Positions 3,038 through 38,637 are shown, counted from the stretch's first letter. The stretch is 64,000 nt of DNA from Candidatus Hadarchaeota archaeon (GCA_964514945.1 CAZESD010000002.1:13369-77368), one strand, 5' to 3'. The notes: generated from the sequence alone by a model not told the origin. Translations and numbers: made by a program.

Positions 3038-3701
3038 CTTATGCCCCTTTTTCTTTCTTCACTGCACTTATAAACCTAAGTTTCTGGTTAAAAATAGAGC
3101 GTTGAATTCTGTTTCAGATTTTGTTTTAATAAACAATTAGAGTACTAAAATTATCTGACGGCCTACAATAAGGAAGGGCTTATTAACTAGTCCAAGCCTA
3201 AGCGATTACTTTTTCTTTAGATTTACTGCACATTTTCCGATGTACGAACGAACTGAAGGAGATGGGAGAAATTGGATGTGACAAACGGGAATAACTTCGA
3301 TGTTGTAAACCTTTTTGACTATTTCATTTACTGTTCTCGTTACACCCTCTTCCCTTCCGTAATCATCAAACACAACTACCGTTCATTTGTGCATAAATTT
3401 CTGAACGTGCAGATTATACTAACCTCTTTCTTTTCAAACTACGTGGTGCGTTCCTCGCTTCTCGCACAGTCGGCACGGCACGGCGGGCGAGGGCTTTGAG
3501 CTGTTTAAATATGGGTTCTGCCATTTTCCCCTCAAATTAACCATAATAGGCTGTCACCAGATTAATAAAGTTTTTATATGAAGGTTCTGCTGCGTATTAG
3601 GGACTTTTAGCATTTTTAGCCCTCGGTGGTGCAATTCGGGACTTGGATGCACGTGGCCGAGAACGGTGCCTCAAGCCACGTGCTGAATGCTAATTTGCAT
3701 C

Positions 3702-5456
3702 TCACGGTTTTGAGCCCGATGCTGAACGAGGCTGGGGATAAACATTCGGGAACTCGGAGTAGTAATCTAAAACGTTAAAGAATATCGGCTCGCCAGAAAT
3801 CGAAAGCGGAGAAATGGGTCCGTACACCATGAAGGGATACTGCTTTCCCCCCATTGTGAGTAATGTCGCGGGATCCCTGAAGCTCTGGTAGAGATCCAAG
3901 TATCCTCCTCCCCCTATCAGCTCTCGTATTGCTCTGAGTTCCCCTCCCCAAGAGAGCCCGTAACCAAAAAAACATATACGCATCTGTTTCAGTACCTCTA
4001 TATCCAGGCCCGCGATGGATGTGCTGATGAAAAGCCACCCAAATCCGTACTTTCTCGTTTCTCTGACGGCCGTCGTAAGCGTCCCCTTGAGATTCTTGAA
4101 ATCTTCGTCCACGGGCCTCTCTGAGGGAATGAATCTATGGGCCTCGTCCACCATCACGAGTAGGTTAAGCAACTCCCTCTCTCGGTACAGGGTCTCCGCG
4201 GCATCCCTCAGTTTTGCGAAGATTTCGTTCAGGACTATCGCCATGACTTCTGGACTCCAGAAGATTCCAGCGGCAGCGGTCTCCGAGAGGTCTATGATCA
4301 CGACGCACTTTTGCTTGCATATTTTCTGGATTAGATCATCAATCCTGACCTTTTGCGGAGCGACAACGAAAAGATCGGTGACAGACCTCCAGATGCTATA
4401 AAGATTTTGTCTCCTGTTAGCGATACAATTTCTAACCCGCATCTGTCCATCCGAACCCACATAGATTCTCTCCACATTCTGGTCGAGGTAATTCATGAGC
4501 TGGTCAAAAGCAGCTTGATGATTTATTGGAACAAAACCCTGTAGAGTGGAAACTCCGTGGGTCATTGGCGGGCGGGCAGACGGTTGTGTCAGAAACGACT
4601 CAATCAGGTAGAGCGCGTTTAACTGGTTTTCCTCCGCCACGACGCCGAGTTCGTGAAGGAACCTTGACCGGAGGAGGATTCGCTGAAGACTCGTGGGACT
4701 GGAAAGGCAGATGTCGCAGACCCTGTACACCTCGGGGGTTCTTCCTACTTGGCTCAGGAGCTTCACCAGATGCTCTTTATTCCTGACCTCGCTGGAGTAC
4801 TCACCGACAGGATCCAGCGCGAGGATTGACATCTGTGGGAACTTGGTGTAAATCGCAAGGAGCATCCTGGCCAAATAAGACTTTCCGGACCCAGTTTTTC
4901 CGAAGACCCCGATGTGGTACCCCTCCCCCAGTCCGCCGTTTTTCCCGAAGTGTTTGAAAAACATTGGAAGGAATATATCCGTGTTGTACAACTTCCCGAC
5001 ATAAGAAATGTCGGTCTGCGCCTTCACGAGTTCGTCCACGATCTCTTGGTTGAGGAGGAAGATTTTCGTCCCCGTTGGAGGAACTGAACCCAATGCGACG
5101 GGCAGTATCTTCCCCTTGTCCCAGGAATAGACCGATCCGACTGAGATCTCCATCCCCCTTACATCATGTTGCTCGGTCAACGGCGGCGCGCGCCCACGAA
5201 AGCTTGTGATCTTGCGAACCGAGTGTCGCTCGATGTACGGGTTCTCGAGCGAGATGGACACCACTTGCCCCATGGCGTAAACGGGCTTTCCATCTTGCCT
5301 GGATTCGGTGATACAGAAGTTTCCAACTATCCCCTTCTCGTATGCACCCTCGATTAAATCAGCGACCAGAGAGTGGCTGGATGACGGGGATCCAACGACG
5401 CCTATCCATTCCCCGCGCTGGACCTTACCGCCGAGCTCGTCCTGTTTTTCACTCAC
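3702..5456 (-). CDS. herA: HerA-like (DUF87/FtsK-HerA superfamily) hexameric ATPase/helicase
   Basis: Walker A GVFGKTGSGKSYLARML; Walker B/DEAH-like box LLVMVDEAHRF; an N-terminal region before the P-loop as in HerA HAS-barrel proteins; 4-nt start/stop overlap (ATGA) with the upstream NurA-like gene. Confidence 0.85.
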   Translation of the reverse strand: MSEKQDELGGKVQRGEWIGVVGSPSSSHSLVADLIEGAYEKGIVGNFCITESRQDGKPVYAMGQVVSISLENPYIERHSVRKITSFRGRAPPLTEQHDVRGMEISVGSVYSWDKGKILPVALGSVPPTGTKIFLLNQEIVDELVKAQTDISYVGKLYNTDIFLPMFFKHFGKNGGLGEGYHIGVFGKTGSGKSYLARMLLAIYTKFPQMSILALDPVGEYSSEVRNKEHLVKLLSQVGRTPEVYRVCDICLSSPTSLQRILLRSRFLHELGVVAEENQLNALYLIESFLTQPSARPPMTHGVSTLQGFVPINHQAAFDQLMNYLDQNVERIYVGSDGQMRVRNCIANRRQNLYSIWRSVTDLFVVAPQKVRIDDLIQKICKQKCVVIIDLSETAAAGIFWSPEVMAIVLNEIFAKLRDAAETLYRERELLNLLVMVDEAHRFIPSERPVDEDFKNLKGTLTTAVRETRKYGFGWLFISTSIAGLDIEVLKQMRICFFGYGLSWGGELRAIRELIGGGGYLDLYQSFRDPATLLTMGGKQYPFMVYGPISPLSISGEPIFFNVLDYYSEFPNVYPQPRSASGSKP

Positions 5457-6616
5457 TCGAATCCCCCCTCAGTTCTGTAGTCGTGAGATGCTAAAAAAAC
5501 ATCGACTGGAACACCGACTACTCGGTCCACATCGTTCAAAGCTGCCTCCCGGAGCTCGGCGAGGGCGAAGTACGCGTGCTTGACGAACTGGTCCGCGATG
5601 TAGAGAGGATACGGTTCGAAAATGCCGGGGATTCCGGATTGATCCATCAAAGCTTCTAGCAGCACCGCGACCCTGCGTTCGTCTTGGGCCACGTTCTCTG
5701 CTACCTCGAGTCTGAGCGCCGGGTGGGCTGGGGACACCTTGAAATAGAAAACTTGTAACTCCCACAGCGCATCGATTATCTTTTTTCTCAACCTAACGAA
5801 TACCTGATCGCTTTCCATTTCTCCGAGTGTGAGGTGCCAGCGGTCCTCCGGGCGGCTGAGCTTCACGGGTCCTACCACATCGCCGGGTTTCAGGGCTATC
5901 GACAGCAGTCCCTTATCGTCTATCCCCTTGAGGACTGCGTGGTTCATGTCTTCCTTTACCAGCAGTGAAAGAATCTCGCTCCGAGTGGTGTACTTCGGCA
6001 CGCCGACGTACATGATGTCGGTCCTTGGAGAAGTGAGGACCTTGAGGTAGTTCTCCAGCGTTGTTTTTTGTCTTGAAACGAACTCATTTTTGAGTTTTTC
6101 TGGGGCATGGCTGACCGCGCGAAATCCCTGTCCAATTTTTATAAGCTGGGTTGTGAGCGAGCCGTCCAAAAAAACGACACGATGGGGGGCGCTCGTGGCG
6201 AGATTAAGCTCGTAAGAAAACATAAGGGCACTACACACGGGTAGCGTTTCGGGTTTGTGCTCGACAGGAAAAATGCGGACGATGTGGTGCGGTTTCTCCC
6301 ACCGTCTGGTTTCTTTTGGTGGGACAAGTCCCTCAACCGCGACACCTGCAATTCCAGTCGTGTCCAGCGAGAGTTGTCGAATGACCGCATAGGTTCCATC
6401 CACACCAACGGTTGTCGGGTAGCTCTTTTGTCTCAACAACTCGTTCACATTTCTTAACTGCCCGAGCTCGATGAGCTTTTCCCTCACGGGGGTTTTTATG
6501 TTCTCTATCTCTCGTAACCTGTCACTCACACTTTGAACAACTTCGCCGTGTTTTTGGAGCATCTCGTCCACCATCGACTCAGGGAGAAAATCTAGTGGAC
6601 TTTCGTACTTCTTCAT
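5453..6616 (-). CDS. nurA: NurA-like 5'-3' nuclease, partner of HerA
   Basis: NurA signature motifs VGVDGTYAV (motif I, xDGS/T) and VVFLDGSL. It is translationally coupled to herA. I prefer the start at 6616 (MKKYESPL) over the track start at 6703 because 6703 would overlap the upstream gene by 85 nt. Confidence 0.7.
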   Translation of the reverse strand: MKKYESPLDFLPESMVDEMLQKHGEVVQSVSDRLREIENIKTPVREKLIELGQLRNVNELLRQKSYPTTVGVDGTYAVIRQLSLDTTGIAGVAVEGLVPPKETRRWEKPHHIVRIFPVEHKPETLPVCSALMFSYELNLATSAPHRVVFLDGSLTTQLIKIGQGFRAVSHAPEKLKNEFVSRQKTTLENYLKVLTSPRTDIMYVGVPKYTTRSEILSLLVKEDMNHAVLKGIDDKGLLSIALKPGDVVGPVKLSRPEDRWHLTLGEMESDQVFVRLRKKIIDALWELQVFYFKVSPAHPALRLEVAENVAQDERRVAVLLEALMDQSGIPGIFEPYPLYIADQFVKHAYFALAELREAALNDVDRVVGVPVDVFLASHDYRTEGGFE

Positions 6617-6618
6617 GT

Positions 6619-7464
6619 TCAATGCCTCGGTGCCTCCAAAATTAACAGCTTCTTGCGACCCCGCTCTCTCGCCATGACTTTCCATCCCGCACGCTTGAAA
6701 CAAAAACCTGGATCTGTGCTTTTAATTGCTTTTGGGTTAACATATGTGAATAAGCGTTTCCCCGACCATTTCTTTATGGCTTGCTTCACAGCTTCTTTGA
6801 TTAAATCACTCGATAGTCCAGCCCCCTCGTTTCTGAACAGCGCACACTCTACTCCCTTCTGTCCATCCCAGCGGATTTTGTTCAATCTCCAGACGAACAG
6901 GGCTCGTTTGTCTGGAGTTATCAAGACCAGTTTTTCACCTGGACCGCAGAAAAACCTCGCGCCCCTAGTTTTTCTGGAGTAGTGATTATCAGCTAGTCTC
7001 TTGGCATCCAAGTTCGCATCATGGGTCACCATCCACACAACTTTTTCTTTGCCCCCATCATAGTCCTCGCTCCAGCGATTGAACTTTGTGAACCCACCAA
7101 GAGCCCGCATTACCGAGCGCGAGCTAATGCCAACGGTAGTGGCTATTTTCTCATACGTAAAACCTTTCTCACGCATAGAAATCATTTTCGCTAAATCTCT
7201 GCGCGAGAGCTTTACCGGTCTCCCCTGCTTTGAGTAGTCATAGATCACATCGACCCTTTTTTGAAAGAGGTAATCTAGTGCTCTCCTGCTTGCATTTTTT
7301 CTCGCCGTTCGTGTGAGAGTTACCCTCTCCAGATTCGGGCATCGCTTCAAGAGAAGCTTTACCGTGTTGCAAGTAAGATAATTAACAACATGAACTTTTT
7401 TGGCGCATCGTGGAAGTCCGTCTATATCCTCATTTTTTCTTACAATCAAAATATCAGCCCCCAA
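6619..7464 (-). CDS. Hypothetical protein with an internal helix-turn-helix, first gene ahead of nurA-herA in the same operon
   Basis: HTH-like stretch TYEKIATTVGISSRSVMRAL; stop 2 nt before the preferred NurA start; unknown C-terminal domain. Confidence 0.5.
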   Translation of the reverse strand: MGADILIVRKNEDIDGLPRCAKKVHVVNYLTCNTVKLLLKRCPNLERVTLTRTARKNASRRALDYLFQKRVDVIYDYSKQGRPVKLSRRDLAKMISMREKGFTYEKIATTVGISSRSVMRALGGFTKFNRWSEDYDGGKEKVVWMVTHDANLDAKRLADNHYSRKTRGARFFCGPGEKLVLITPDKRALFVWRLNKIRWDGQKGVECALFRNEGAGLSSDLIKEAVKQAIKKWSGKRLFTYVNPKAIKSTDPGFCFKRAGWKVMARERGRKKLLILEAPRH

Positions 7465-7486
7465 ATAGGTGACATTTTGTTGAATA

Positions 7487-7990
7487 TTAACATTTTGTCA
7501 CTCCCCTCGCTCGCAGATTTTCACTTAAATTTTCGTCATTCTGTCGCTCCTCCGTTTCAAGTCTTTTGATGGTTCTGGTCTCTCTCTTTATCTCTTTGGG
7601 TCTTGGCCTAAGCTTCTTGTCCATCCTCTCCTTGAAGCGAACACCGACAACTTCTCTTGTAATGCCTAGTTCATAAAGTTCTTGAGGACGAACACAACCT
7701 TGGCGCAAAATCACCTCTGGGATTTTTTCTGGACTGGAGAAAATGCGAACCTCTACAGCAACCTTCAAAACACTTGGACCCGAATATCCCCGTCTGAATT
7801 CGATTAAAAATTTTGAACCCGATCGAGCAAGATATTGCTTCCCAACTGGGCTTGCCGCACTCCGAAATTCCCAGATCTTTTTCCCTTGCGCGATAAGGTC
7901 AAACCACTTCTTTTTAAGCGGGCAAAAAACCCTTCGCCATTTCTTAACACTTCCCATGATCAGATCCCCAAAAACCATCCGACCACCCAC
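7487..7990 (-). CDS. ASCH (PUA-like) domain protein
   Basis: KKWFDLIAQGKKIWEFR matches the ASCH core (hP.K..yfd.I..G.Kt.E.R); the C-terminal tail is basic. Confidence 0.55.
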   Translation of the reverse strand: MGGRMVFGDLIMGSVKKWRRVFCPLKKKWFDLIAQGKKIWEFRSAASPVGKQYLARSGSKFLIEFRRGYSGPSVLKVAVEVRIFSSPEKIPEVILRQGCVRPQELYELGITREVVGVRFKERMDKKLRPRPKEIKRETRTIKRLETEERQNDENLSENLRARGVTKC

Positions 7991-8343
7991 CCGATCGCGA
8001 ACCAGTAGAGCATGTCTAGGTTAAGCAGGAAAGACGCTTTATATCCGACGCCCTCCGCCAAGCGCCCGTAAACTTTCCTCCAAAGATGCGGATCGCCTAG
8101 TGCAATCAGTGGGTAGAGGCAGAACACCAGAGGCACGACGATAACGAAGCCGAAGTAGCTGGCCGACGCCCCGACCACGAACGCTAGGCCGCACTCGGCA
8201 CGGGCCAGAAGCGAGTAGATTGTCAACCTCCGATTGCCCTTCTTTATCTTGTGTCTCATTCGGGCCATGAACTTAGCATAGCCTTCGTCGAACCTTCGGG
8301 CCAAGAAGTCGCCTGGGGTGAGGATTAGGCGCTTGACGTTCAT
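7960..8343 (-). CDS. Small membrane protein, the full-length member (copy 1) of a family that recurs in this window
   Basis: 127 aa with two hydrophobic segments. Paralogous sequence recurs at 14583, 18249, 19277 and 20594. Confidence 0.6.
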   Translation of the reverse strand: MNVKRLILTPGDFLARRFDEGYAKFMARMRHKIKKGNRRLTIYSLLARAECGLAFVVGASASYFGFVIVVPLVFCLYPLIALGDPHLWRKVYGRLAEGVGYKASFLLNLDMLYWFAIGWVVGWFLGI

Positions 8344-8679: not shown

Positions 8680-9510
8680 TTAACGATCTATCTGGCTGAA
8701 CTTGGAAATAAGTTGCTCGATGGTTAATAACTCAGTGCTTCTGAACTTCAGAGCATTGTCTGTTACATTTTGTACTTCGTGTAGTTTCACTATTTTTTCG
8801 TCGCTTGACCATACAACCACGTATAGCGGAACATTAAGACTCTGTCTAAGAATATCCAAAGGTTTCCACCTGTTTATGTCTTTGGAAAAGTAAAGATTCA
8901 GATCATGAGATTTCACTGGAAATTTGCGAGTTCTACTGAATTCGAAAATAGCTTCCACCTCCTTGGCTATTTTGTTCAAGAGAAACCCATCAAGGTTACC
9001 TGGCCAAGGGACGCCGTGCCGTCGTAGGCACTGGTCTATGGATGATAATCGACCTGGCTCAACGAAACCTTTAGAGACATGAATTCCCTTCAGGCTTGAC
9101 ATCCACTGTGCGAGATCTTCGCATGAGTTAAACAACTTTTTATTTACAACTACTATCTGTCCCTCGTCTTTAGCATCTACAGACAAAAGCCAAAAATTTT
9201 CCCCCCCATCTTGCCATAGCAGGAGATACAGCGGAACATTTAGAGACCTAGCCAGCACTATCCTAGCAAGCCAAGGATCTTTGTCTTCTTTTGTTTCAAA
9301 CCACTTACAGATCTGAAGTTCTGTCCATTCTCCAACTCTGATTGTGGATTTGCGCCTTTCGAATAATGCGGTGACAATGTTGCCCCTAACGGAGTAACCT
9401 TCTACAGGGTAAAGTGGAATGCCTTTTTTAAGAAGGGATTCATATACCCAATTTTTGGCTTCTGGTGTATCTATCCGTAATTCTGCTGCCATAATTTCCC
9501 CTCCATTCAC
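8680..9510 (-). CDS. Hypothetical protein made of two tandem copies of one homologous domain
   Basis: The block ARSLNVPLYLLLWQDGGENFWLLSVD in the first half matches LRQSLNVPLYVVVWSSDEKIVKLHEV in the second half. Confidence 0.5.
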   Translation of the reverse strand: MNGGEIMAAELRIDTPEAKNWVYESLLKKGIPLYPVEGYSVRGNIVTALFERRKSTIRVGEWTELQICKWFETKEDKDPWLARIVLARSLNVPLYLLLWQDGGENFWLLSVDAKDEGQIVVVNKKLFNSCEDLAQWMSSLKGIHVSKGFVEPGRLSSIDQCLRRHGVPWPGNLDGFLLNKIAKEVEAIFEFSRTRKFPVKSHDLNLYFSKDINRWKPLDILRQSLNVPLYVVVWSSDEKIVKLHEVQNVTDNALKFRSTELLTIEQLISKFSQIDR

Positions 9511-9648: not shown

Positions 9649-12336
9649 TTACCTCAAACTCTCCTCAATAATTTTCTTTTCAGATTCAGTTATACCATAC
9701 AAACTATAGACCAATTCGTCTATCTCCGCGTCTGTTTTATTTATTTCTTCTTCTATTCTCTGTCTTTCGTCTGTTTTTTTGTCCCCGATTTCATTGAGGC
9801 GTTTGTTAAGAGAGAGCATTTTGTCCACGAGTTTGATAAGGGGTTGTTGTTGGGTTTCTGGAATTATTTTAATCGGTAGTTCATCTATTTGAGTCCCCCG
9901 CAAATCCAGATATCCACCACCGACATGGGTGGTGCCAAAATTTACTTTGTAATAAAAATCAATCACTTTTGAATTTAAGAGTGCAGTTAAAAATCTGAGA
10001 TTGATTTTTTGTTCTTTTTTTGGGATTAAATAGTAAATTCTATCCATTATGAAATTACCGCCGCCTTCATACGCTGCTTTAAGACTTAAAACTGTTCGTG
10101 GCATGAGCACTTTCTCTTTCGACAAAATTTTATTTTGTAGATCAGAAACAACAAAAACATCATCAGAAAGTTTAGGTAAATACCCGCTAACATTTCTAGA
10201 AACTATGCACTTGTGTGAGTTTTTTGTCTTTTCATTTAGTATTTTTATCTTATTTTTTGGTGAACCTCTACGGCATGTGAACAAATCTTTTACCCTAACA
10301 CTCTTTTTAACAAACTTCTCTATTAATTGAAATTTAATGTTTCCAATTTCTTCAAGAAATCTATTATCTCGACCTTCTAGAAACTTGGATTGTTTTATTT
10401 TTACTGTATTCTTATTAAAATGTAAATCTTCTATCTCATTTATTTTTTGAAATGTTATTAAATTGTTTTTTCTATTCATCTCATTACCCTCTTTTTGTAG
10501 GATTGTGATAACTGGATATGTCGATGCATCTTTGAAAATCCTCAAATGAGATACATCAATCAAAGAGATGATCTTGCAGTTTTCAAGAATTATATCCCTT
10601 AATTTTTGGCCGTAGTCACTCGCAATAAATTTGTTAGAAGTGATAAATCCCAAGTATCCATTATTTCTTAATAACTTCATCCCAATTTCAAAAAATAAGA
10701 TATAGATGTCGTATTGTTCGTAGGCACTTGAATATTTCTTAGCGTGAAACAGTTTATCTTTATTTGGAAGATCAGTATTTCTAATGTAAGGCGGATTTCC
10801 GATAACAACATCAAAACCGCCTTCGTCAATGATTTGTTTGAATTCCTTTTCCCATTTGAAAGCCTTATCTCCCGCGACTTTTTCATCGTCAATCAAAGAA
10901 TTACCGCATTTGATGTTTTGCTTTAGCAAGGGCAATCTGTATCCTTTTTCCGTAATTTTCAACAAAAGATTTAACTGTGCGATCTCTACTGCTTGCTTGT
11001 CTAAATCAACGCCGAAAATATTGTTCTTCAAAATTTCTACTTTTTTTGTAAATGTCGTTCCTGTCTCTACATCCAAGCGTGTTTGATTGTAATCTTTATC
11101 CTTCTTGCTGTGGTATTCATTCAAAACATCAAAAGCTTTTATCAAAAATGAACCGGAGCCACAAGCAGAATCCAAAACCCTAATTTTTTCGACATCCACT
11201 GTTTTGTCTTTAAGCAACTCACCTAAAGTATTTCTTACGATATAATCAACAATATAAGTGGGCGTGTAGTAAATTCCCTGCTCCTTGCGGCGGGCGTGCT
11301 TTTTCGCCAAGGTGGCCCGCTTTGCGGTCTTCTTTAGAATGTGGCCCAAGTACTGCTCGTAAACATTACCAAGAACATCAGCATCTAGTGCGGAAAAATC
11401 ATACTTTATTGTCCTATCCTTTGTGTGATCAAGACCGTTTATTATTTCTTCAAGAACCTCATTACTCACATCTAATTGGTCGCATAAGTGAGGTTTAAAC
11501 AGCTCACTATTGTATTCATCCCAAAAATGGCGGAAAACATCAACTATACGTTCAGCAAGAGTGCCTCTATGTTTACTTTCCCATATCCGTAGCACGGATA
11601 ACAATGTTTCTTCTTCTAGTTTTCTATCTTCACAGTTTCTAATGAAAATTAGTCTATCTATAATTCTCTGAACAGCCTCGTCCAACTCCGCCTCAGTGAG
11701 TCGTTTGTCTTTGTTTCTCGCTAGAATATCCTTAGAAAGCTTGGCTCGCCATATTGTCAAATCGTTAAGCAACTGTTCGCCCACAGAACTTTTCTTAGAT
11801 TTTTTGCCCCATTTCTCAGCTTCTTTATCCAATAAGCCCTGTTCAAAACTTTCTTTAGACAGAAGCCACAATTCCTCAAATCTGTCTAAAAACTCTTGGC
11901 GAGGGATAGTTATCGGACGACTTTGAGACGGGTCGGTGGTTTTCCACTCTGCATTAAATATTTTTACGCCTTGATCAAAATCGGTAAGAACGGCCCAAGT
12001 GCAGCCCTTATGCCAAGCGTAATTTATTGCTTGTTCTGCAAACCTAGGATCATCCAAGTCCTCTTTTAGTGCTTTTGCTTCGAGAAAGAATTTTGGGATT
12101 CCATTAATTCTAAAACTGTAGTCAACCCGACCCTTTGATATTGTTTCTTCTCTGGTAACTTCATCGGGATGTGTTTTATTACGAACATCCCAACCCAAAG
12201 CTTCAAACAAGGGTTCTATAAATTCAGCTTTGGTATCCGCCTCAGTATACTTGCCGAATCTTTTTTCTTCGACGACTTTGTCGTATTTCTCAAGAAGCTC
12301 CTTTATTTGCTGTTTGGCGTTTTCCTTGTTTACCAT
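9649..12336 (-). CDS. Type IIG/IIL restriction-modification enzyme of the MmeI family (endonuclease fused to an N6-adenine methyltransferase)
   Basis: N-terminal PD-(D/E)xK layout matching MmeI (RVDYSF..FFLEAKALKEDL); methyltransferase motif I VLDSACGSGSFL and motif IV VVIGNPPY; C-terminal region the size of a target-recognition domain; 895 aa. Confidence 0.85.
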   Translation of the reverse strand: MVNKENAKQQIKELLEKYDKVVEEKRFGKYTEADTKAEFIEPLFEALGWDVRNKTHPDEVTREETISKGRVDYSFRINGIPKFFLEAKALKEDLDDPRFAEQAINYAWHKGCTWAVLTDFDQGVKIFNAEWKTTDPSQSRPITIPRQEFLDRFEELWLLSKESFEQGLLDKEAEKWGKKSKKSSVGEQLLNDLTIWRAKLSKDILARNKDKRLTEAELDEAVQRIIDRLIFIRNCEDRKLEEETLLSVLRIWESKHRGTLAERIVDVFRHFWDEYNSELFKPHLCDQLDVSNEVLEEIINGLDHTKDRTIKYDFSALDADVLGNVYEQYLGHILKKTAKRATLAKKHARRKEQGIYYTPTYIVDYIVRNTLGELLKDKTVDVEKIRVLDSACGSGSFLIKAFDVLNEYHSKKDKDYNQTRLDVETGTTFTKKVEILKNNIFGVDLDKQAVEIAQLNLLLKITEKGYRLPLLKQNIKCGNSLIDDEKVAGDKAFKWEKEFKQIIDEGGFDVVIGNPPYIRNTDLPNKDKLFHAKKYSSAYEQYDIYILFFEIGMKLLRNNGYLGFITSNKFIASDYGQKLRDIILENCKIISLIDVSHLRIFKDASTYPVITILQKEGNEMNRKNNLITFQKINEIEDLHFNKNTVKIKQSKFLEGRDNRFLEEIGNIKFQLIEKFVKKSVRVKDLFTCRRGSPKNKIKILNEKTKNSHKCIVSRNVSGYLPKLSDDVFVVSDLQNKILSKEKVLMPRTVLSLKAAYEGGGNFIMDRIYYLIPKKEQKINLRFLTALLNSKVIDFYYKVNFGTTHVGGGYLDLRGTQIDELPIKIIPETQQQPLIKLVDKMLSLNKRLNEIGDKKTDERQRIEEEINKTDAEIDELVYSLYGITESEKKIIEESLR

Positions 12337-12843: not shown

Positions 12844-14232
12844 TCAAGTACTCCAAAAAAATCCCGGAACATAAACTTCTTCGTGGGATAATCCACCATG
12901 TGAGGATTTGAAATGCGTGAATCCTGAACGATAATTTGAGAGGTCTAAGCCTCCGAGGTAACAATTCTCGAAATGAACAACTACTTCCCCAATATGAAAA
13001 TCAGTCCCATAGGACTCACCAGTAATCTCTTCAGTCGCGAATCGTTCAAGTGTTCCAGGCTTAAGCGTTTTCCATTTTTCACCTGCCCAATCATAGCCGT
13101 AAAAACCTGAGCCTTCCTTTTTCACCCGTACAAGTGCAGGTTCGATGTCAGATTTCATTATCAAGGGATGTAAATCCTCAGAATAAAGATTGAGAATAGT
13201 TTGATTCGTTGCATAAAATTTGTAGTTCTTACCTAGGTACTTTTTAAATTTAGGAAAGGGAACAAAACCTTCTGGAACAGGTTTGTGGCCATGATCAGAA
13301 ACAATGAAGGAAAGGGTCTGACCGGAGCCAGATTCTTTGAGTTTACTATCTAAGCTAATTATGTATTGAAAGATTTTGCACAATTCGGATGTGACTATAG
13401 GGTTATCCGCTCCGTACATGTGAGCTAGGTAATCAATTGTGAATCGAACGAAGAGAAGCCAAAACTTCTTTGTCTCGTTTCTCTTGATGTATTTCTCTGC
13501 TTCTTGGGATGTCTCTAGGTTACCTGTGGTTTTTACATAAGTTTCTCTAAATAATTCACTCCCAAAAAAGTAATCTAAGAAACGACGTCCTTCGCTTTGG
13601 CTGTGGGATTTTCCTGCGGTGATAAATCCCAATGCACCGTCTTTATCCATCAATGAGGAGAGCAGGAAATAGGTCGTGATGGGAACCACGCTGGGTAAAA
13701 GCAGCTTTGTATTGTCCGATAGGTTTGGTTTAACGTTGAATCTTTCCCCAGTGTCTACGTCCCAGAACCTATCTGCGAAAACTTTGTGCTCTATTGGGAA
13801 CGCACCTGTGAATAATGATGTTGTAGCTACTGTGGTCATCGATGGGAACGTTGTAAACATTGAAGCTATCTCAGGCTTTATTTTTTCGAAGAAGGGTTTA
13901 CCTGATTTGAAAAATGTGGTAAAGCCCATGCCATCTATCAGGTAAATGATAATGTGATTGAATGATTCTAAATTCACATGAAGTCGGTCCTCGATCACAT
14001 CTTCCAAGCTTGCTCCGCAGTATCCCAGGCGTTGAATGTCATAAAGCGTGTTTATCTTAATATCGGTACCTAACACTCCTGCCTCGAGTCTTCTCTTTGG
14101 AGGACCCTCCCTTTTTTCTAAATACCGCAATAAAGTAGGGGCTATATCGACAATCGAAAACTCGCCCTCGTCCAAATCACGAATTCGTGTGCATATCTTT
14201 AGGCCATGCTTTGTGTTTTCAACGGCTGTCAT
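12844..14232 (-). CDS. Alkaline-phosphatase-superfamily protein (type I phosphodiesterase / nucleotide pyrophosphatase-like; PglZ-like fold)
   Basis: Metal-ligand and nucleophile block IIIYLIDGMGFTTF...PSMTTVATTSLFTG, FIVSDHGH and C-terminal SHGGLSHEEVYVP are all typical of the AP/NPP clan; there is an extra N-terminal domain of ~90 aa. Confidence 0.7.
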   Translation of the reverse strand: MTAVENTKHGLKICTRIRDLDEGEFSIVDIAPTLLRYLEKREGPPKRRLEAGVLGTDIKINTLYDIQRLGYCGASLEDVIEDRLHVNLESFNHIIIYLIDGMGFTTFFKSGKPFFEKIKPEIASMFTTFPSMTTVATTSLFTGAFPIEHKVFADRFWDVDTGERFNVKPNLSDNTKLLLPSVVPITTYFLLSSLMDKDGALGFITAGKSHSQSEGRRFLDYFFGSELFRETYVKTTGNLETSQEAEKYIKRNETKKFWLLFVRFTIDYLAHMYGADNPIVTSELCKIFQYIISLDSKLKESGSGQTLSFIVSDHGHKPVPEGFVPFPKFKKYLGKNYKFYATNQTILNLYSEDLHPLIMKSDIEPALVRVKKEGSGFYGYDWAGEKWKTLKPGTLERFATEEITGESYGTDFHIGEVVVHFENCYLGGLDLSNYRSGFTHFKSSHGGLSHEEVYVPGFFWST

Positions 14233-23120: not shown

Positions 23121-23615
23121 GTGAATGAATTGAGAGATAATCTCACAAGGATAAACATATCCCTGACGAAGGATCAGGCCAAGCGGTACAAGGAATATAG
23201 TAGGCACTGCCACGGTAGCCGGAGCCAGTTCCTGCGCTTGGCGGCGGAGAACGAGATCGAGAGACGCCAGAATGGCGGGGGCACGGCAGAAATTGATGTA
23301 ACCCTCAGACCTCTTGTAGAGAGGCTGGAAGAGGTAGAAAAAGCGGTCAAGCGGATCGAGGGGAGGTTGGAGAAGACCGAGAAGGGAGTCGACTTCCTCG
23401 TTGATAAACACGGAAGCAGGATCGAGAAAGTTGCAGACGATGTAGAGAAGCTACTCGAGGAACACGGCGGCGAACTCGGCGTGCCCGAGATGAGCGATTT
23501 ACTTCCATACGAACGTAGCGAGATCCTCTTAGGTGTCGAAGGGCTGGAGAACGTACATACGATTAAGCGGGTTGAGCAAGAAGGGGGAATAATAAAGTGG
23601 AAGATCAGGGGGTGA
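23121..23615 (+). CDS. RHH-like DNA-binding protein with a coiled-coil C-terminus
   Basis: INISLTKDQAKRYKEY...SRSQFLRLAAENEI. Confidence 0.5.
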   Translation: MNELRDNLTRINISLTKDQAKRYKEYSRHCHGSRSQFLRLAAENEIERRQNGGGTAEIDVTLRPLVERLEEVEKAVKRIEGRLEKTEKGVDFLVDKHGSRIEKVADDVEKLLEEHGGELGVPEMSDLLPYERSEILLGVEGLENVHTIKRVEQEGGIIKWKIRG

Positions 23616-24982
23616 AGCATGTGGCAAGTGAAAGCGAAATTGTGCAGACAGCGCTCGATGGCTTGTTAAAGGAAAGTGAGGGTGAAACAACGAAGGATGA
23701 AAGCAATGAAAAGGGATCCATCCAAGCTGGTTCACCAGAGACCTTTCTCGGGTCCTTCGCAAGGCGCCAAGAGCTATACGAACAGGGGCTTAGCGACTCC
23801 GCGATAGCGCGGGAGGAGGGTGTGAGCCGCTCCGCTATGAGAAGGAATTTGCCACGGAATTCGCATTTGAAGTCCTTCCCCCGTCGCCAAGAGCTATACG
23901 AACAGGGGCTTAGTGATTACGCGATCGCGCAGGCAGAAAGCGTCGCCAATCACGTTATTTGGATGTGGAGAAAACGACGAAATTTGCCTCCGAATCTGCC
24001 TTCGCCTCAAAAACATATAGCAGTGAAAAGCTATTTCATAAAAGAATATCTCAGGTATCTTGAAGATGAGGGCTCAAGTGTCGTCAATAATCATAAGTGC
24101 TGTTTGGCGATGTTCGAGAACTTCTTAAAGGGTAAACCGTTAGAGAAAGTCGCCCCGAGGGATGTTTGGGACTTTCTAAACAATTTGATGGTAAAGAGGA
24201 GGGCAAAAGGCACTATATCACACTATTTTTCAACAATTAAATCGTTTTACGAGTATTTGGACCTCTGCCATGACATTGACGTTTCAGAATTAAGGAGGAA
24301 GCTTCCAGAACTGAGGAGGCAGATAAAAAAGTATCGATCTGGAGTACGGAAGGGTGTTGGTCGAGAACCCCTTACGAGGGATGAGGTTCGCCGTCTAATT
24401 AATGCGCCAGACAGCCTGCGCGATACGCTCCTCCTCAGCATGCTTTGCTATACCGGAATAAGGGCAGGAGAAGCTGCAGGTTTAAAAATCGAAAAGGTCG
24501 ACACGAAGAGGAGGGAAATAGAGGTCGTTGGCAAGGGAGATAAGCCGAGAAGGGTACCATATCATCTCGACCTTGATAGGCTGATAGACAGGTGGCTGAA
24601 TAAGGTAAGGAGGAGCTATGTAAACTCAGGGAATAGCGATTATTTCTTCGTCTCGAAATCGGGGGCTAAATTGACGGTTCCTCAAATCCGCAAAATTGTA
24701 AATAAAGCGGCTGAAAAAGCAAGTATTCAAAAAGTAGTTTTAGTGAAACTTGATGGTGCGGTAATTTATAAGGTAAAGCCCCATGTCCTTCGGCACACTT
24801 TCGCGACCCATCTAGATGAGGATTTCGCGAACGCTTCTGAGGACAGAATTATTCCAAGGGAGGACATCCAACAGATATTGGGCCACGAGCAAATGAGCAC
24901 AACAAGAGAGTATATCCATTCTGATGTAAGATTCAAGTCTTACTGTAAGCACTTCAAGGCCTACTTTGGAAGAAATCCTTAG
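23597..24982 (+). CDS. Tyrosine recombinase/integrase (XerC/D-like)
   Basis: LCYTGIRAGEAAGLKIEKVD, HVLRHTFATHL, ILGHEQMSTTREYIH; the N-terminus has a tandem ~40-aa duplication (RRQELYEQGLSD.AIA); the start is uncertain. Confidence 0.85.
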   Translation: MEDQGVKHVASESEIVQTALDGLLKESEGETTKDESNEKGSIQAGSPETFLGSFARRQELYEQGLSDSAIAREEGVSRSAMRRNLPRNSHLKSFPRRQELYEQGLSDYAIAQAESVANHVIWMWRKRRNLPPNLPSPQKHIAVKSYFIKEYLRYLEDEGSSVVNNHKCCLAMFENFLKGKPLEKVAPRDVWDFLNNLMVKRRAKGTISHYFSTIKSFYEYLDLCHDIDVSELRRKLPELRRQIKKYRSGVRKGVGREPLTRDEVRRLINAPDSLRDTLLLSMLCYTGIRAGEAAGLKIEKVDTKRREIEVVGKGDKPRRVPYHLDLDRLIDRWLNKVRRSYVNSGNSDYFFVSKSGAKLTVPQIRKIVNKAAEKASIQKVVLVKLDGAVIYKVKPHVLRHTFATHLDEDFANASEDRIIPREDIQQILGHEQMSTTREYIHSDVRFKSYCKHFKAYFGRNP

Positions 24983-25737: not shown

Positions 25738-27168
25738 GTGGTTTCAGAGTCCAGAGTCTTGGAGCGACTCGAAGGCGGGTTCGAGATCCGAAGAATCACG
25801 CACGGGCCTGAGGGCTACCAACTCGACAGACCAGTTGAGGTCAGGCTTCCGGGGGATATGAGCAGGGGCGAGGAGGATGTCTACGATTACATTATTCGCT
25901 CCCTCCTTAACGACACGCCTCGTCTGATCCCGTTCGCGTGCGAGAGCCGAGCGATATTCGACCTCGCAAAGTACCTGAGGCGGGGCCTCAGCTCTAGCGA
26001 GCATACCCTGCGCACCTACGTACACGGCGTTGCCCAGTTCTGCAGATGGGCTGGAAGGGCCCCCGACGAACTTATTTGCGAGTGCAAGACCTCCGATGGG
26101 CTGCCTGATCAAAAGAAGCTTGCCGAACACGCGAAACTCCTCGATGATTACGTCGGATCTCTGCAGGCGGACGGACTCGCACCGCTCACCATAGCGAATT
26201 ACGTCAAAGCCATCAAGAGCCTGTACCGAGCAAATGGTTTGGAACTCAGGCTCCTCTACCGACTCAAGCGTACGATCAAAAACGAAGACCGAGCTCCGAC
26301 GCCCGAGGAACTCCAGCGGATGATCGATTTGGGGAACCTCCGCGACAAAGCGATCGTTTCGATGCTAGCCCTAGGCGGCTTTCGGATAGGGACGCTCGCG
26401 CGGCTAAAGTACCGCCACGTCCGCGGGGACTTGGAACGCGGCATGGTGCCCGTGCAAGTGCACGTGGAGGCCGACATCACTAAGGGCAAGTATCACAGCT
26501 ACGACACCTTCCTAGGCAAGGAGGCCGCCGAGTACCTGAAAGCGTACCTCGACCTGCGGCGGCGTGGAACTTTAAGGGAACACCGAACCTCAAGCGGTCA
26601 CATACTTCGTGTAGGAATTCCCCCGGAACAAATCACGGACGAATCGCCGCTCATACGCGCTGATCGCGACATTAAGGTAAGGTCGGTGACCCCCCGCGTG
26701 ATTTACCACGTCATCAACTCGCTTTATCGAAGGGCCGGGCTCGTTTCAAGGAGGGGAAGTGGTCGGACCCGATACCAGCTCTGGGCCCACTCGATCCGTA
26801 AGTATTTCCGAACACAGTTAGCAGCACTCGGTATGCCGACCGACTACATTGAATACATGATGGGCCACAGGATCTCGACCTACCACGACATACGCATGAA
26901 GGGAATCGAGTTCCTCCGCAACGTTTACGCTAGCTCTGGACTATCGATTAGGTCCAAAACGAAGATTACACGCTTGCAGATACTGGAGCAAATGGTGAGC
27001 GCTTGGGGAATGGATCCGAACAAAGTCGTGGTGAAAGAAGCATTCGCTGAGCCACACCGGGTCTTCGTATCGCCGTACGATCGAGAGGAGAATCAGATGA
27101 AGGTACTGAGCAACGCGCTGAAAGAGATGATGCGAAAAGAGCTAGGGTCTGTGGGTCGTAGAAATTGA
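25738..27168 (+). CDS. Tyrosine recombinase/integrase lying at the right end of the element
   Basis: LALGGFRIGTLARLKYRHV, HSIRKYFRT, MGHRISTYHDI; it ends 15 bp before the right-hand direct repeat. Confidence 0.8.
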   Translation: MVSESRVLERLEGGFEIRRITHGPEGYQLDRPVEVRLPGDMSRGEEDVYDYIIRSLLNDTPRLIPFACESRAIFDLAKYLRRGLSSSEHTLRTYVHGVAQFCRWAGRAPDELICECKTSDGLPDQKKLAEHAKLLDDYVGSLQADGLAPLTIANYVKAIKSLYRANGLELRLLYRLKRTIKNEDRAPTPEELQRMIDLGNLRDKAIVSMLALGGFRIGTLARLKYRHVRGDLERGMVPVQVHVEADITKGKYHSYDTFLGKEAAEYLKAYLDLRRRGTLREHRTSSGHILRVGIPPEQITDESPLIRADRDIKVRSVTPRVIYHVINSLYRRAGLVSRRGSGRTRYQLWAHSIRKYFRTQLAALGMPTDYIEYMMGHRISTYHDIRMKGIEFLRNVYASSGLSIRSKTKITRLQILEQMVSAWGMDPNKVVVKEAFAEPHRVFVSPYDREENQMKVLSNALKEMMRKELGSVGRRN

Positions 27169-36257: not shown

Positions 36258-37382
36258 TTACCGCTCCCACATCAGCAGGCCCTCCCGCGCTATTCCGACC
36301 TTCTTTCTCGCGGGAGTTGTACAGAAGCGCTTGTTTACCACGACCACGCGTTTGGCCCTGAACCCGGCGCGTTCGGCAAGCCTGCTAAGCGTTTCGCAGA
36401 CCTCAACAACACCTTCCGGGAAACATCCATCTGATGTCACCAAACAAACTCTCGCCCCGTGCTTGCAGACGCGATAAAGCTCTTTGATTACTGCGAACAT
36501 GTCCTTGAAGTAAAGTTTCGCTTCGATCGGTTTTTCCCCAACAAATTCCCCAACTTCAGAAAAATCCTCCACAGCGCCACCCTCACGCACGCTGATGAGC
36601 TGATCTGAAGCTGGAGCATCCAAGTCCAACAACTGCTGCTCGATGCGGTACGCGTTGATGTACTCCCGTTTGTTCAGGTAGGGCGGAGAGGTAACGACTG
36701 CATCAACACTCTCGTCGGCCAGCTTAAGCTTCCTCGCGTCGCAGTGCTCAATCGTTACCTTGCAGGCCTTTCCCTCGAATCGCTCGACATCGCTACACAT
36801 GTGCAGGAGTTGTCGTTTGAGCACATTTCGGAGGGGAGGCACCGGCTTCTTGACGAATCTTATCGCCGCGCCATCCTTGTGCGCCCAGCTGCATCGCATC
36901 GCCGCATTCATCAACCCGAGTAACAGAAATTCGCGAACCTTCTCGTTTTCAACCTCTATTATCTTTCGCTTGAAAAATGCGATGTCCTCCAGCAGGGGCT
37001 TTGGAAAAACGCGCGCGGCGAAACCCGGCATTTCAACTTCTAGTTTTTCGAACTTCGATTTCATCAACCTTCGAACTGCTGCCCTGAGCTCCTCCACATC
37101 GTAATCCCTTAATTTCACGCGCGAGGCGAACAACATGATTGGATGTACATCATAACCGACGCTGCCTACCCCAAGTTGTTTGCAGGCAAGCGGCGTCGTC
37201 CCGCAGCCAACAAAGGGGTCAAGTACGAGATCGCCTTCGCCAAGTCCCCAAGTTTCAGCAAGTAGGAACACGAGGTCTCGGGAGAACGCCTCTTTGAAAT
37301 ATAACCAGTTGTAAACGGGAAGTCGCTTGTTGAGGAGGAAGGTCGCCAGCCTACCCAGTTTGAGCTTCTCGACTATCTTCAC
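36258..37382 (-). CDS. SAM-dependent methyltransferase, N6/N4 DNA-MTase-like or UPF0020 RNA-MTase-like
   Basis: Motif I DPFVGCGTT and motif IV VTSPPY. Confidence 0.55.
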   Translation of the reverse strand: MKIVEKLKLGRLATFLLNKRLPVYNWLYFKEAFSRDLVFLLAETWGLGEGDLVLDPFVGCGTTPLACKQLGVGSVGYDVHPIMLFASRVKLRDYDVEELRAAVRRLMKSKFEKLEVEMPGFAARVFPKPLLEDIAFFKRKIIEVENEKVREFLLLGLMNAAMRCSWAHKDGAAIRFVKKPVPPLRNVLKRQLLHMCSDVERFEGKACKVTIEHCDARKLKLADESVDAVVTSPPYLNKREYINAYRIEQQLLDLDAPASDQLISVREGGAVEDFSEVGEFVGEKPIEAKLYFKDMFAVIKELYRVCKHGARVCLVTSDGCFPEGVVEVCETLSRLAERAGFRAKRVVVVNKRFCTTPARKKVGIAREGLLMWER

Positions 37383-37398: not shown

Positions 37399-38637
37399 TC
37401 ATCGCATCGACATAAGATAATCAGCCTCAGTGTCGCTCAATTCGAGTTCGGCCGCGATTCGAGATGCAGCCTTCTTGTCGTGTTTGAATATCAGGTGCAA
37501 GTAGGGCAAGAAGTGTTTTCGCGCAACTTTCGAGGAGGTGTGGCAACGAGCAGCGATTTTTTTCGCTGTGCTATCACGCACGGCTCGAGCAGCCCTAGTT
37601 CTGCCAAAATATTTTCCAGAACTGGGGGGTTGGAAGCGGACAAATTTTAACTCACCCTCACGAGAGAGAGCGACCCCGGCGCTCATTAGGTCACTGGCGT
37701 ACCTCCACAGCCCGTAAGCTTGTCTTCTTCGGGCGCGGCCTAGAAAAGTATCGGCCCGCGAAATGGCGTCGTAGGCCTGAACCCGGTCAGCTGGGTCGGC
37801 AAACATCCGTGGGATATTTTCATCAATCCACGCGAGGGCATCGTCAGGCGCCTTGTCGAGCGCCCATAGCAACTCTCGGGCTTCCCTGACTCCCTTGGCA
37901 TAGACGAGTTGCTTCAGCACGTCGAAAATGCTCGCTTCCCGGTCGCGTCGGTAAAGCACGACATCCTTTATGGCTAAGCGCTTTCTGCCGGCTGCAATGG
38001 TTTGCAGATCATTTATCGCGGAGCGCAGGTCGCCCCGTACAGTTTCAGCGATTACGTTCAACGCAATCGGGTCGACTTCGATGTGCTCCGCGCGGCATAT
38101 CCGTTGGAGTACGCTTGCGATTACATCCTTAGTCAAGCGCCTGAAGTTTATGGCGAGGCAGGTGCCCCTTATTTTCCACGGAATCGCATATTGGTCATTG
38201 GCAATTAGCACCACTGGGTTCTGAGTCTGCTTGAGCAATTCCTCGATCGCGCGGTATCCACCCCTGTCTGTAGTTCCGTAGACGTTGTCGGCTTCGTCGA
38301 GCACGACCAACCGCTTGCCCTCAGTTCCTGCAAAAAGAGTGCCAGTCGTCGCTGCTGTGCCGGCGACCTGTTGGACTATTTTAAGGGTGCGTTTGTCGCT
38401 AGCGTTGAGCTCAATCAGATCCCATCCAAATTCCCGGGCCAATGCAGCGGTGGCAATTGTCTTTCCCGTCCCCGCCGCCCCGTAGAGCAGGAGGGCGGGT
38501 TTTTTTGGCTTGCCCTTCCGCCACCCTTCAGCCCAGTCAAGCATTGCTTTAAGAGCTTGGGATTGTCCAATTACTTCCTTGAGTTTGCGGGGTTGGTACT
38601 TGTCGACCCAAGATTCTGACATGGAGGTACCAAACAC
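37399..38637 (-). CDS. rfcL: Replication factor C large subunit (AAA+ clamp loader)
   Basis: WVDKYQPRKLKEVIGQ; LLLYGAAGTGKT; ELNASDKR; the SRC-like region. Confidence 0.7.
   Translation of the reverse strand: MFGTSMSESWVDKYQPRKLKEVIGQSQALKAMLDWAEGWRKGKPKKPALLLYGAAGTGKTIATAALAREFGWDLIELNASDKRTLKIVQQVAGTAATTGTLFAGTEGKRLVVLDEADNVYGTTDRGGYRAIEELLKQTQNPVVLIANDQYAIPWKIRGTCLAINFRRLTKDVIASVLQRICRAEHIEVDPIALNVIAETVRGDLRSAINDLQTIAAGRKRLAIKDVVLYRRDREASIFDVLKQLVYAKGVREARELLWALDKAPDDALAWIDENIPRMFADPADRVQAYDAISRADTFLGRARRRQAYGLWRYASDLMSAGVALSREGELKFVRFQPPSSGKYFGRTRAARAVRDSTAKKIAARCHTSSKVARKHFLPYLHLIFKHDKKAASRIAAELELSDTEADYLMSMR

Follow-up and report, generated by a model that had tools for sequence, protein, structure and literature searches.

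A 64,000-nucleotide stretch of DNA from Candidatus Hadarchaeota archaeon (GCA_964514945.1 CAZESD010000002.1:13369-77368), referred to at its full length as the window, carries on its minus strand a conserved three-gene module (3702..7464), in which the gene of a DUF1699_N–HTH–GNAT-like protein (HTH, helix-turn-helix), called the partner here, is followed by the genes of a NurA-like nuclease and a HerA-like ATPase/translocase. The partner gene lies at 6619..7464 and encodes 281 aa, or 276 aa if its start is TTG 7449. The NurA-like gene occupies 5453..6616 (387 aa from ATG 6616; open reading frame (ORF) list, Pfam NurA) and the HerA-like gene 3702..5456 (584 aa; ORF list, Pfam DUF87, PADLOC HerA). 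Another minus-strand gene, at 7487..7957, encodes a 156-aa ASCH-fold protein from ATG 7957. The first-pass annotation had described these four tightly packed ORFs as an operon, and all of them were found at the positions given; the interval assigned to the operon, 5453..7990, leaves out the HerA-like gene, though the text of the claim names it.

The spacing of the genes was read from the sequence. NurA and HerA share 4 nt (GTGA), 2 nt lie between the partner-gene stop (6619..6621) and the NurA ATG (6616), and the ASCH stop precedes the partner start by 22 nt (TTG 7464) or 37 nt (TTG 7449). Of these two starts, TTG 7449 agrees with an identical public protein (P0001) and with the starts in homologues. 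The 4-nt start/stop overlap and the 2-nt and 22-nt gaps reported earlier are therefore present in the sequence, the last of them with TTG 7464. The 31-nt overlap reported with them was an artefact of the longest-ORF start GTG 7990; the ATG at 7957, which is backed by a homologue (P0243, 83% identical), begins the ASCH gene 2 nt past the stop of a 127-aa ORF. For a further reported gap of 3 nt, no matching gap was identified in the sequence.

Relatives of the module genes were retrieved with their genomic contexts, labelled with L numbers, among which L012 is identical to the window. About 18 full-length relatives of the partner protein were obtained; all placeable ones are archaeal, and one comes from a Hadarchaeales genome. 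The partner gene is located directly upstream of NurA, with HerA following, in L001-3, L004-5, L006-7, L008-9, L010-11, L100, L108, L118 and L178, and the order of partner, NurA and HerA was held in every context retrieved. In L095-96 and L112, a GNAT-only version of 154 aa fills the partner's place. With the window and L012 counted and the GNAT-only form included, about 12 independent archaeal contexts carry the module. The stop codon of the partner gene and the start codon of NurA usually overlap, by 1-8 nt in L001, L006, L008, L010 and L095, and a 2-nt gap stands there in the window. The kept order and the overlapping codons of the related loci bear out the earlier proposal: the 281-aa protein is a conserved, translationally coupled companion of a NurA-HerA pair that is not canonical. 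The identities to the window differ along the module. In L001 (L001-L003 are Hadarchaeales), the partner is 71% identical to the window (P0003) and NurA and HerA only about 50%, whereas L006 and L010 reach 56-59% in the partner and 70-76% in NurA and HerA (in L006, 59% versus 71-76%). Such discordant identities suggest recombination between the partner gene and the NurA-HerA pair, as in mobile defence genes.

An AlphaFold model of the partner protein, built on 56 homologues (mean pLDDT 90), shows three domains: the first is alpha/beta (residues 1-77), the second a three-helix HTH (88-122), and the last, at the C-terminus, is alpha/beta again and GNAT-like (144-277). The N-terminal domain has a weak match to Pfam DUF1699, and PF28505 DUF1699_N is annotated on homologues. 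The HTH corresponds to matches of HTH_7 and HTH_23 at residues 81-122, both below the Pfam threshold, and residues 144-275 match phrog_24928 of PHROG (function unassigned) at 4e-35. In Foldseek searches, the C-terminal domain matched the GNAT structures 3juw, 3fbu, NatD 4u9w, AcrVA5 6iuf, RimJ-like and TacT/TacT3 with probabilities of 0.8-1.0, those of 3juw, 3fbu, NatD and AcrVA5 being 0.97-1.0, and viral NAT_SF and acetyltransferase models as well. The only NCBIfam match of the window protein was XF1762_fam at 0.05, and the family profile found nothing meaningful among PDB sequences. The C-terminal domain of the protein at 6619..7464, which the first-pass annotation had called unknown, is thus resolved by AlphaFold and Foldseek as a predicted GNAT-like fold of the phrog_24928 family, with a putative acetyltransferase activity. 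The family alignment contains invariant H161, Y162, C207, F210, R211, N212, E213 and C255. The motifs of the domain are HYSRK (6970..6984), GPGEKLVL (6922..6945), FRNEGAG (6817..6837) and DPGFCFKRAGW (6682..6714), all on the minus strand. Within FRNEGAG, the residues R211-N-E-G-A-G216 of the window protein fit GNAT motif A, R/Q-x-x-G-x-G/A, which contacts the pyrophosphate of acetyl-CoA; among the homologues, R211, N212 and E213 of this motif are invariant and positions 214-216 vary.

The HerA-like protein matches Pfam DUF87 (2e-12) and PADLOC HerA (4.9e-17), with Walker A as GVFGKTGSGKS (4878..4910, minus strand) and Walker B as VMVDEAH (4137..4157, minus strand). The NurA-like protein matches Pfam NurA (6.7e-7; 29.5 bits against a gathering cut-off of 21) and carries, also on the minus strand, the conserved motifs VGVDG (6395..6409), FLDGS (6158..6172) and EPYPLYIAD (5591..5617); D73, G74, D151, G152, S153 and D342 are invariant among 48 aligned homologues. 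The Walker motifs of HerA and the acidic motifs of NurA are intact, and the Pfam matches, together with the sub-threshold HTH_7/HTH_23 of the partner, uphold the assignments made earlier as HerA-like, NurA-like and internal HTH. The equivalog scores of NCBIfam are not reached by HerA (HerA_Thermprot, 25.3 bits against a cut-off of 800; helicase_HerA, 16.5 against 970), and its best solved sequence relative is TdpA 8wet (2.6e-6, about 120 residues covered), followed by HerA 4d2i. The NurA of the window has no NCBIfam match and, judged by sequence, forms part of a divergent clade, because its family profile finds no solved NurA at E<=1.

The window also encodes Mre11 (38750..40051, Metallophos) and Rad50 (39861..42437, SMC_N and zinc hook), both on the strand opposite to the module. 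This pair is 31 kb away from the module and unlinked to it. No HerA or NurA lies next to Mre11-Rad50 in the window, and neither Mre11 nor Rad50 is labelled among the annotated genes around the related loci. The distance of Mre11-Rad50, the HerA scores below the equivalog cut-offs and the NurA profile without a solved NurA argue that the module is not a canonical herA-mre11-rad50-nurA repair operon. It had also been stated that the upstream genes stand outside the canonical HerA-NurA-Mre11-Rad50 set, and this held for both the partner and the ASCH protein. Beside Mre11-Rad50 lie an RFC-like clamp loader (37399..38637, minus strand) and an N6/N4 DNA methylase (36258..37382, minus strand).

The ASCH protein alone matches Pfam ASCH (PF04266) with an E-value of 0.02 over 25 aa, its 16 bits not reaching the gathering cut-off of 21.2. 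A full HMMER scan gave it a small family of 20 representatives, nine of which match Pfam ASCH at E<=0.05, the best at 2.6e-5. The AlphaFold model has a pLDDT of 89, and its top Foldseek match is E. coli YqfB (9kyh, 7e-5, TM 0.69, probability 1.0); ZmASCH, PH0355 and TTHA0113 also match with probability 1.0, and with EF3133 and PF0470 included the range is 0.94-1.0. The predicted structure and these matches bear out an ASCH/PUA-like fold for the product of 7487..7990, as first noted, despite the weak Pfam match. The core comprises residues 9-110, with the GxKxxExR motif present as GKKIWEFR (7862..7885; G26, K27, E30 and R32), and K27, E30 and R32 are kept in at least 90% of the 20 relatives. 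Residues 120-150 form a long, charged, lineage-specific C-terminal helix. The N4-acetylcytidine amidohydrolase YqfB, the best structural match, shares the GxKxxExR motif, whereas the window protein differs by an extra charged helix of 45 residues and its family of 20 representatives. The catalytic Thr of YqfB presumably lies at the position where the window protein has E30, and amidohydrolase activity is therefore not implied.

Besides the window, only L178 (same strand, gap of 162 nt) and L100 (opposite strand, divergent, 88-bp spacer) have a gene of this ASCH type beside the module; the nine other GNAT-type contexts lack it. Another ASCH family (cluster c18, Pfam ASCH 4e-8), without sequence kinship to that of the window, recurs loosely near related NurA-HerA loci, which also carry a 372-aa membrane protein (c11) and a 113-aa protein (c22). 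Because the window type is limited to three close contexts while the other family recurs loosely, ASCH proteins are recurrent neighbours and not core subunits, and the ASCH gene of the window is a lineage-specific add-on. The idea of a conserved four-gene operon accordingly had to be narrowed: the partner, NurA and HerA genes are conserved together in other genomes, but the ASCH gene goes with them only in two close relatives (L178, L100).

The 127-aa ORF (7960..8343, minus strand; ORF list, hydropathy) is membrane-like, with a hydrophobic segment at about residues 51-85 and a hydrophobic C-terminus. Searches of Pfam, PADLOC, NCBIfam and PHROG gave no match, and among the related loci only the identical L012 has a counterpart. 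The transcription unit probably begins with this ORF. At the other end, a perfect 9-bp inverted repeat, GCACGTGGC ... GCCACGTGC, with a 17-nt loop (3649..3683, minus strand; read from the sequence) starts 19 nt downstream of the HerA stop, without a T-run after it. This repeat was not called by the terminator scan of the window and may mark the end of the unit. The promoter/terminator scan, which has no archaeal promoter model, gave fewer sites in the window than in shuffled controls. Gene spacing alone suggests that the genes from 8343 to 3702 are co-transcribed.

The module lies in a stretch (1-22 kb) whose G+C is a mosaic, with values per gene of 0.36 to 0.56. Two genes of tyrosine recombinases (Phage_integrase) are located at 23597..24982 and 25738..27168 on the plus strand. 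Both integrases, and the G+C mosaic of 1-22 kb, point to the left third of the window as an integrated element or island. About 2 kb upstream of the module, a gene at 9649..12336 (minus strand) encodes a Type IIG restriction-modification enzyme of 895 aa (Eco57I 9e-49, PADLOC REase_MTase_IIG 6e-135). Its G+C is 0.36 against 0.52 in the NurA-HerA genes, which suggests that the island was put together from separately acquired pieces. Neither an attachment repeat nor a tRNA was found near the island in the window; the tRNA and Rfam scans of the window were both empty, so they offer no clue to an integration site.

The neighbours of the related loci include restriction-modification genes, AbiEi/AbiEii, integrase, transposase, ParB-like genes and an NB-ARC ATPase. 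In L095, ParB-like genes occur with an integrase, and in L006 a terminase is found 8 kb upstream of the module, in a context that looks proviral or defence-rich. The upstream part of L006 (1..6216) encodes the terminase large subunit, a GcrA-like protein, a D12 DNA methylase, a DUF328/YaaD protein (DpdC-family), a GIY-YIG protein and a 527-aa HATPase_c_3 protein, the last of which recurs in L102, L109, L144 and L146. The "372-aa" neighbours in L006 and L095 proved not to be related. In the window, a 276-aa ORF (8680..9510, minus strand) between the Type IIG gene and the module shows an apparent internal duplication, with SLNVPLYLLLWQ at about residue 90 and SLNVPLYVVVWS at about residue 235; it has no library match and no relative in the fetched loci. 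Directly upstream of the Type IIG enzyme, 12844..14232 (minus strand) encodes a 462-aa protein of the alkaline-phosphatase superfamily (Pfam Phosphodiest 3e-18). Phosphatases of the PglZ type serve as effectors in BREX-like systems. A 2566-aa ORF (56294..63994, minus strand) lies at the right end of the window.

The GNAT-like domain also exists by itself, in more than 100 proteins of about 155 aa. The stand-alone genes are found in diverse bacterial genomes (80 loci, L013-L092) in prophage-like regions, and in phages, including gp60 of Paenibacillus phage Lily (L093 5962..6420), which lies beside two DNA methyltransferases, and Salinibacter phages. The neighbours met most often are orphan DNA methyltransferases (C5, N6/N4 and D12), and 21 of 82 loci have one at a distance of 3 kb or less; in a few loci the stand-alone gene adjoins DUF5131 and a PAPS-reductase-like gene. 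From these neighbourhoods, the stand-alone domain appears to belong to a phage DNA-modification/early-gene region.

The NurA homologues number 286 and are all archaeal where the source is named (Bathyarchaeota, Thermococcus, Nanoarchaeota and Promethearchaeota), and a metagenome scan with NurA gave 464 matches. HerA comes after NurA in 87 of 95 related loci. Clustering of the neighbours revealed a second recurrent partner, a protein of about 375 aa encoded directly after HerA, which is DruA/DUF4338 (PF14236; Pfam 2e-58, PADLOC 6e-69). The Thermococcus locus L180 carries this DruA variant and sits among ordinary chromosomal genes. Counted over 39 non-redundant NurA-HerA loci with sufficient flank on either side, the GNAT-like partner is present in eight and DruA in 11, the two never occur together, and 20 loci lack both; all 20 of the last group fall in a separate, more distant NurA clade, mostly from soil metagenomes. 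In a neighbour-joining tree of 78 NurA sequences, computed without support values, the GNAT-like and DruA loci are interleaved. The interleaving of partner types on the NurA tree and the discordant identities suggest that the third gene has been swapped repeatedly.

DUF4338 (DruA) has been classed as a GNAT-fold domain (PMC10853773). If this classification is right, the clade would always pair NurA-HerA with exactly one GNAT-fold protein. Homology of the GNAT-like domain to DruA at the sequence level was considered and rejected (hhalign, 0.4%). The NurA-HerA-DruA loci (L097 12948..19498, L104 1..6779, L126 165..7957 and L175) repeatedly carry further genes, namely an approximately 850-aa Ser/Thr-kinase and ORC/Cdc6-like AAA protein (PADLOC CARF_STK_AAA 4e-28), an approximately 375-aa CARF6-like protein (2e-20), an ASCH protein, a 113-aa protein and a C-terminally membrane-anchored 372-aa protein without family. 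The order in L126 is NurA-HerA-kinase-CARF6-DruA, and in L175 the 372-aa gene lies between NurA and HerA. The NurA-HerA-DruA loci may form a larger multi-gene system.

On balance, we consider it moderately likely that the three-gene module, which sits on a horizontally mobile island, works against invaders in a restriction-like manner and is a variant of the HerA-based anti-invader systems, because the partner is conserved and coupled to NurA, its predicted fold is that of GNAT, the motifs are intact, DruA occurs as an alternative and the surroundings are those of mobile and defence genes. By analogy with canonical HerA-NurA, a HerA hexamer would thread linear or broken DNA into a NurA dimer, which would degrade it, and the target would be invading DNA. 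The HTH-GNAT subunit, made in a fixed ratio with the nuclease, could gate or direct this machine, determining when or on what it acts. Acetylation of a target such as DNA, a chromatin protein or the complex might be the means, or else the subunit might tether the complex to DNA. The ASCH protein, whose fold serves to read modified bases, would be a lineage-specific accessory, as would the small membrane ORF, both co-transcribed in this genome.

Several points weigh against an anti-invader role. GNAT is assigned from a structure prediction, and Foldseek gave E-values of just 1e-4 to 1e-2 when the query held all three domains; the homologues do not keep G216 of the putative CoA motif, no Pfam Acetyltransf_* model matches the window protein, and no NCBIfam family matches the C-terminal domain in 56 family members. 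The equivalence of DruA and the GNAT-like partner is one of fold and position alone, the fold of DruA being taken from the literature, and hhalign found no homology between the alignments of the two families (probability 0.4%). This NurA-HerA pair stands beside none of the stand-alone GNAT-like genes in the 80 bacterial genome loci. PADLOC has no model for the NurA of the window or for its partner, and we know of no defence function for any NurA-containing system. The island context is guilt by association only, and the module, seen within 64 kb, may be the sole HerA-NurA pair of the genome and could then have a role in repair.

Such a role would make the pair an ordinary HerA-NurA acting in end resection with the distant Mre11-Rad50, with the HTH-GNAT protein as a transcriptional or acetylation regulator. 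The intact domains and motifs of NurA and HerA fit with this, as do the presence of Mre11 and Rad50 in the same window and the lack of a second HerA-NurA within the 64 kb; the large distant clade with neither partner (20 of the 39 loci) could be the housekeeping version, and L180 of Thermococcus lies among ordinary chromosomal genes. However, the module is unlinked to mre11-rad50 in the window and in any related context, it is flanked by mobile and defence genes in a local G+C mosaic of 0.35-0.56, its partner and NurA/HerA identities are discordant, and its sequences are very divergent from the solved and curated HerA and NurA. The clade includes, moreover, the Thermococcus barophilus protein P0165; Thermococcus species presumably carry a canonical herA-mre11-rad50-nurA operon, which would make the P0165-type NurA an extra copy. 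We regard housekeeping repair as unlikely. A function for the mobile element itself is rather improbable as well, though the stand-alone GNAT-like domain is a phage or prophage gene (phrog_24928, Lily gp60, Salinibacter phages) that has a DNA methyltransferase no more than 3 kb away in 21 of the 82 bacterial loci, AcrVA5 is among the Foldseek GNAT matches, L006 has a terminase, L095 has ParB-like genes with an integrase, and the window has two integrases. The module would then serve replication/recombination, the degradation of host or competitor DNA, or counter-defence, the GNAT resembling the anti-defence acetyltransferase AcrVA5. Yet it occurs in many differing backbones and not in one element type, and its neighbours are classical host defence genes (restriction-modification, AbiE); since defence systems commonly ride on mobile elements, this explanation also overlaps with an anti-invader role.

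The HTH-GNAT protein might alternatively be an autoregulated TacT/AtaT-type toxin or regulator, as in toxin-antitoxin systems, whose adjacency to NurA-HerA would be mechanistically meaningless. TacT3 and other small GNATs are indeed among the structural matches, and fusions of HTH and effector are common in autoregulated modules. We consider this very improbable, given that order and overlapping codons are kept over about 12 contexts at 40-80% identity, that DruA is the positional replacement in sister loci and that the GNAT-only form is still coupled to NurA. It is also distinctly doubtful that the locus is an acetyl-mark analogue of restriction-modification, in which the GNAT would write a mark, NurA-HerA would destroy unmarked DNA and ASCH would read or erase the mark. 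The mark would be placed on self DNA (e.g., N4-acetylcytosine) or on a DNA-bound chromatin protein, the ASCH protein, with the fold of the ac4C-binding hydrolase YqfB, would be its reader or eraser, and the orphan GNAT copies of phages beside orphan DNA methyltransferases would counterfeit it. DruA would have the same writer or discriminator role in the sister loci and in Druantia.

HerA-NurA is regarded in the literature as an archaeal DNA-repair machine, and a mobile clade with a third subunit points to its repurposing for genome conflict. If the module acts against invaders, the HerA defence systems known so far would gain a NurA-based effector, and there would be a first way into the function of DruA, which has no assigned role in Druantia, and of a widespread unannotated protein family of phages and prophages. 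Such a role also raises the testable idea that acetylation, beside methylation or phosphorothioation, can gate a DNA-degrading immune machine. The Thermococcus relatives with the DruA variant (L180) make genetics feasible there.

The literature searched yielded no account of a NurA-HerA module that includes a phrog_24928-type GNAT or DruA. The canonical archaeal HerA-NurA complex of Sulfolobus, Pyrococcus and Thermococcus kodakarensis performs end resection with Mre11-Rad50 (PMC3326311, PMC5715905, PMC12977600), and its HerA translocase feeds DNA to the NurA nuclease dimer (PMC3326311, PMC5715905). The window module resembles this complex in that NurA adjoins HerA (DUF87) and that Walker A/B and the "DG" acidic motifs of NurA are intact, and by analogy it probably shares the canonical hexamer-plus-dimer mechanism of threading and degrading DNA. 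It differs in having no operonic link to mre11-rad50, in its mobile island and in its obligatory third gene (GNAT-like, or DruA in sister loci), and its proteins are very divergent (HerA 25 bits against 800; no solved NurA at E<=1). DruA of Druantia is comparable as the GNAT-classed third gene of the sister NurA-HerA loci, mutually exclusive with the GNAT-like partner; it lies downstream of HerA, whereas the partner of the window lies upstream of NurA, and the two have no detectable sequence homology. Neither DruA nor DruE is matched in the window by Pfam or PADLOC, and DruB-E are not labelled among the annotated genes next to the modules, no screen aimed at DruB-E having been made in the sister loci.

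HerA-family ATPases are coupled to effectors in anti-phage defence, as in Sir2-HerA and DUF4297-HerA (PMC11291478, PMC11472057), and there is a proposal of HerA/FtsK "capture" systems that include GNAT components (PMC12839542). A proposed HerA/FtsK-GNAT-TGT system is also part of the published work on HerA defence (PMC11291478, PMC11472057, PMC10853773, PMC12839542). The window likewise couples a HerA-family ATPase (PADLOC HerA 5e-17) to an effector enzyme in a defence-island context, and it has its GNAT-like protein beside HerA, as the proposed BRC systems have a GNAT, a putative modification enzyme there, beside HerA/FtsK. In contrast to these systems, its effector is NurA and not Sir2, DUF4297, a restriction endonuclease or PglZ (Sir2 and DUF4297 have no Pfam or PADLOC match in the genes flanking the window HerA), its phrog_24928 family and DUF1699_N-HTH fusion are not described in the same four papers, and the ORC/Cdc6, TGT and BREX components are lacking from the module. 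TdpAB(C) is comparable through TdpA 8wet, the best solved sequence relative of the window HerA. TdpB is the nuclease partner of TdpA. No tdpC or phosphorothioate genes are seen with the window module, which is a difference from the tdp cluster, where restriction genes are paired with the DNA-modification gene tdpC (PMC12914056); a modification role for the window GNAT would parallel that of tdpC.

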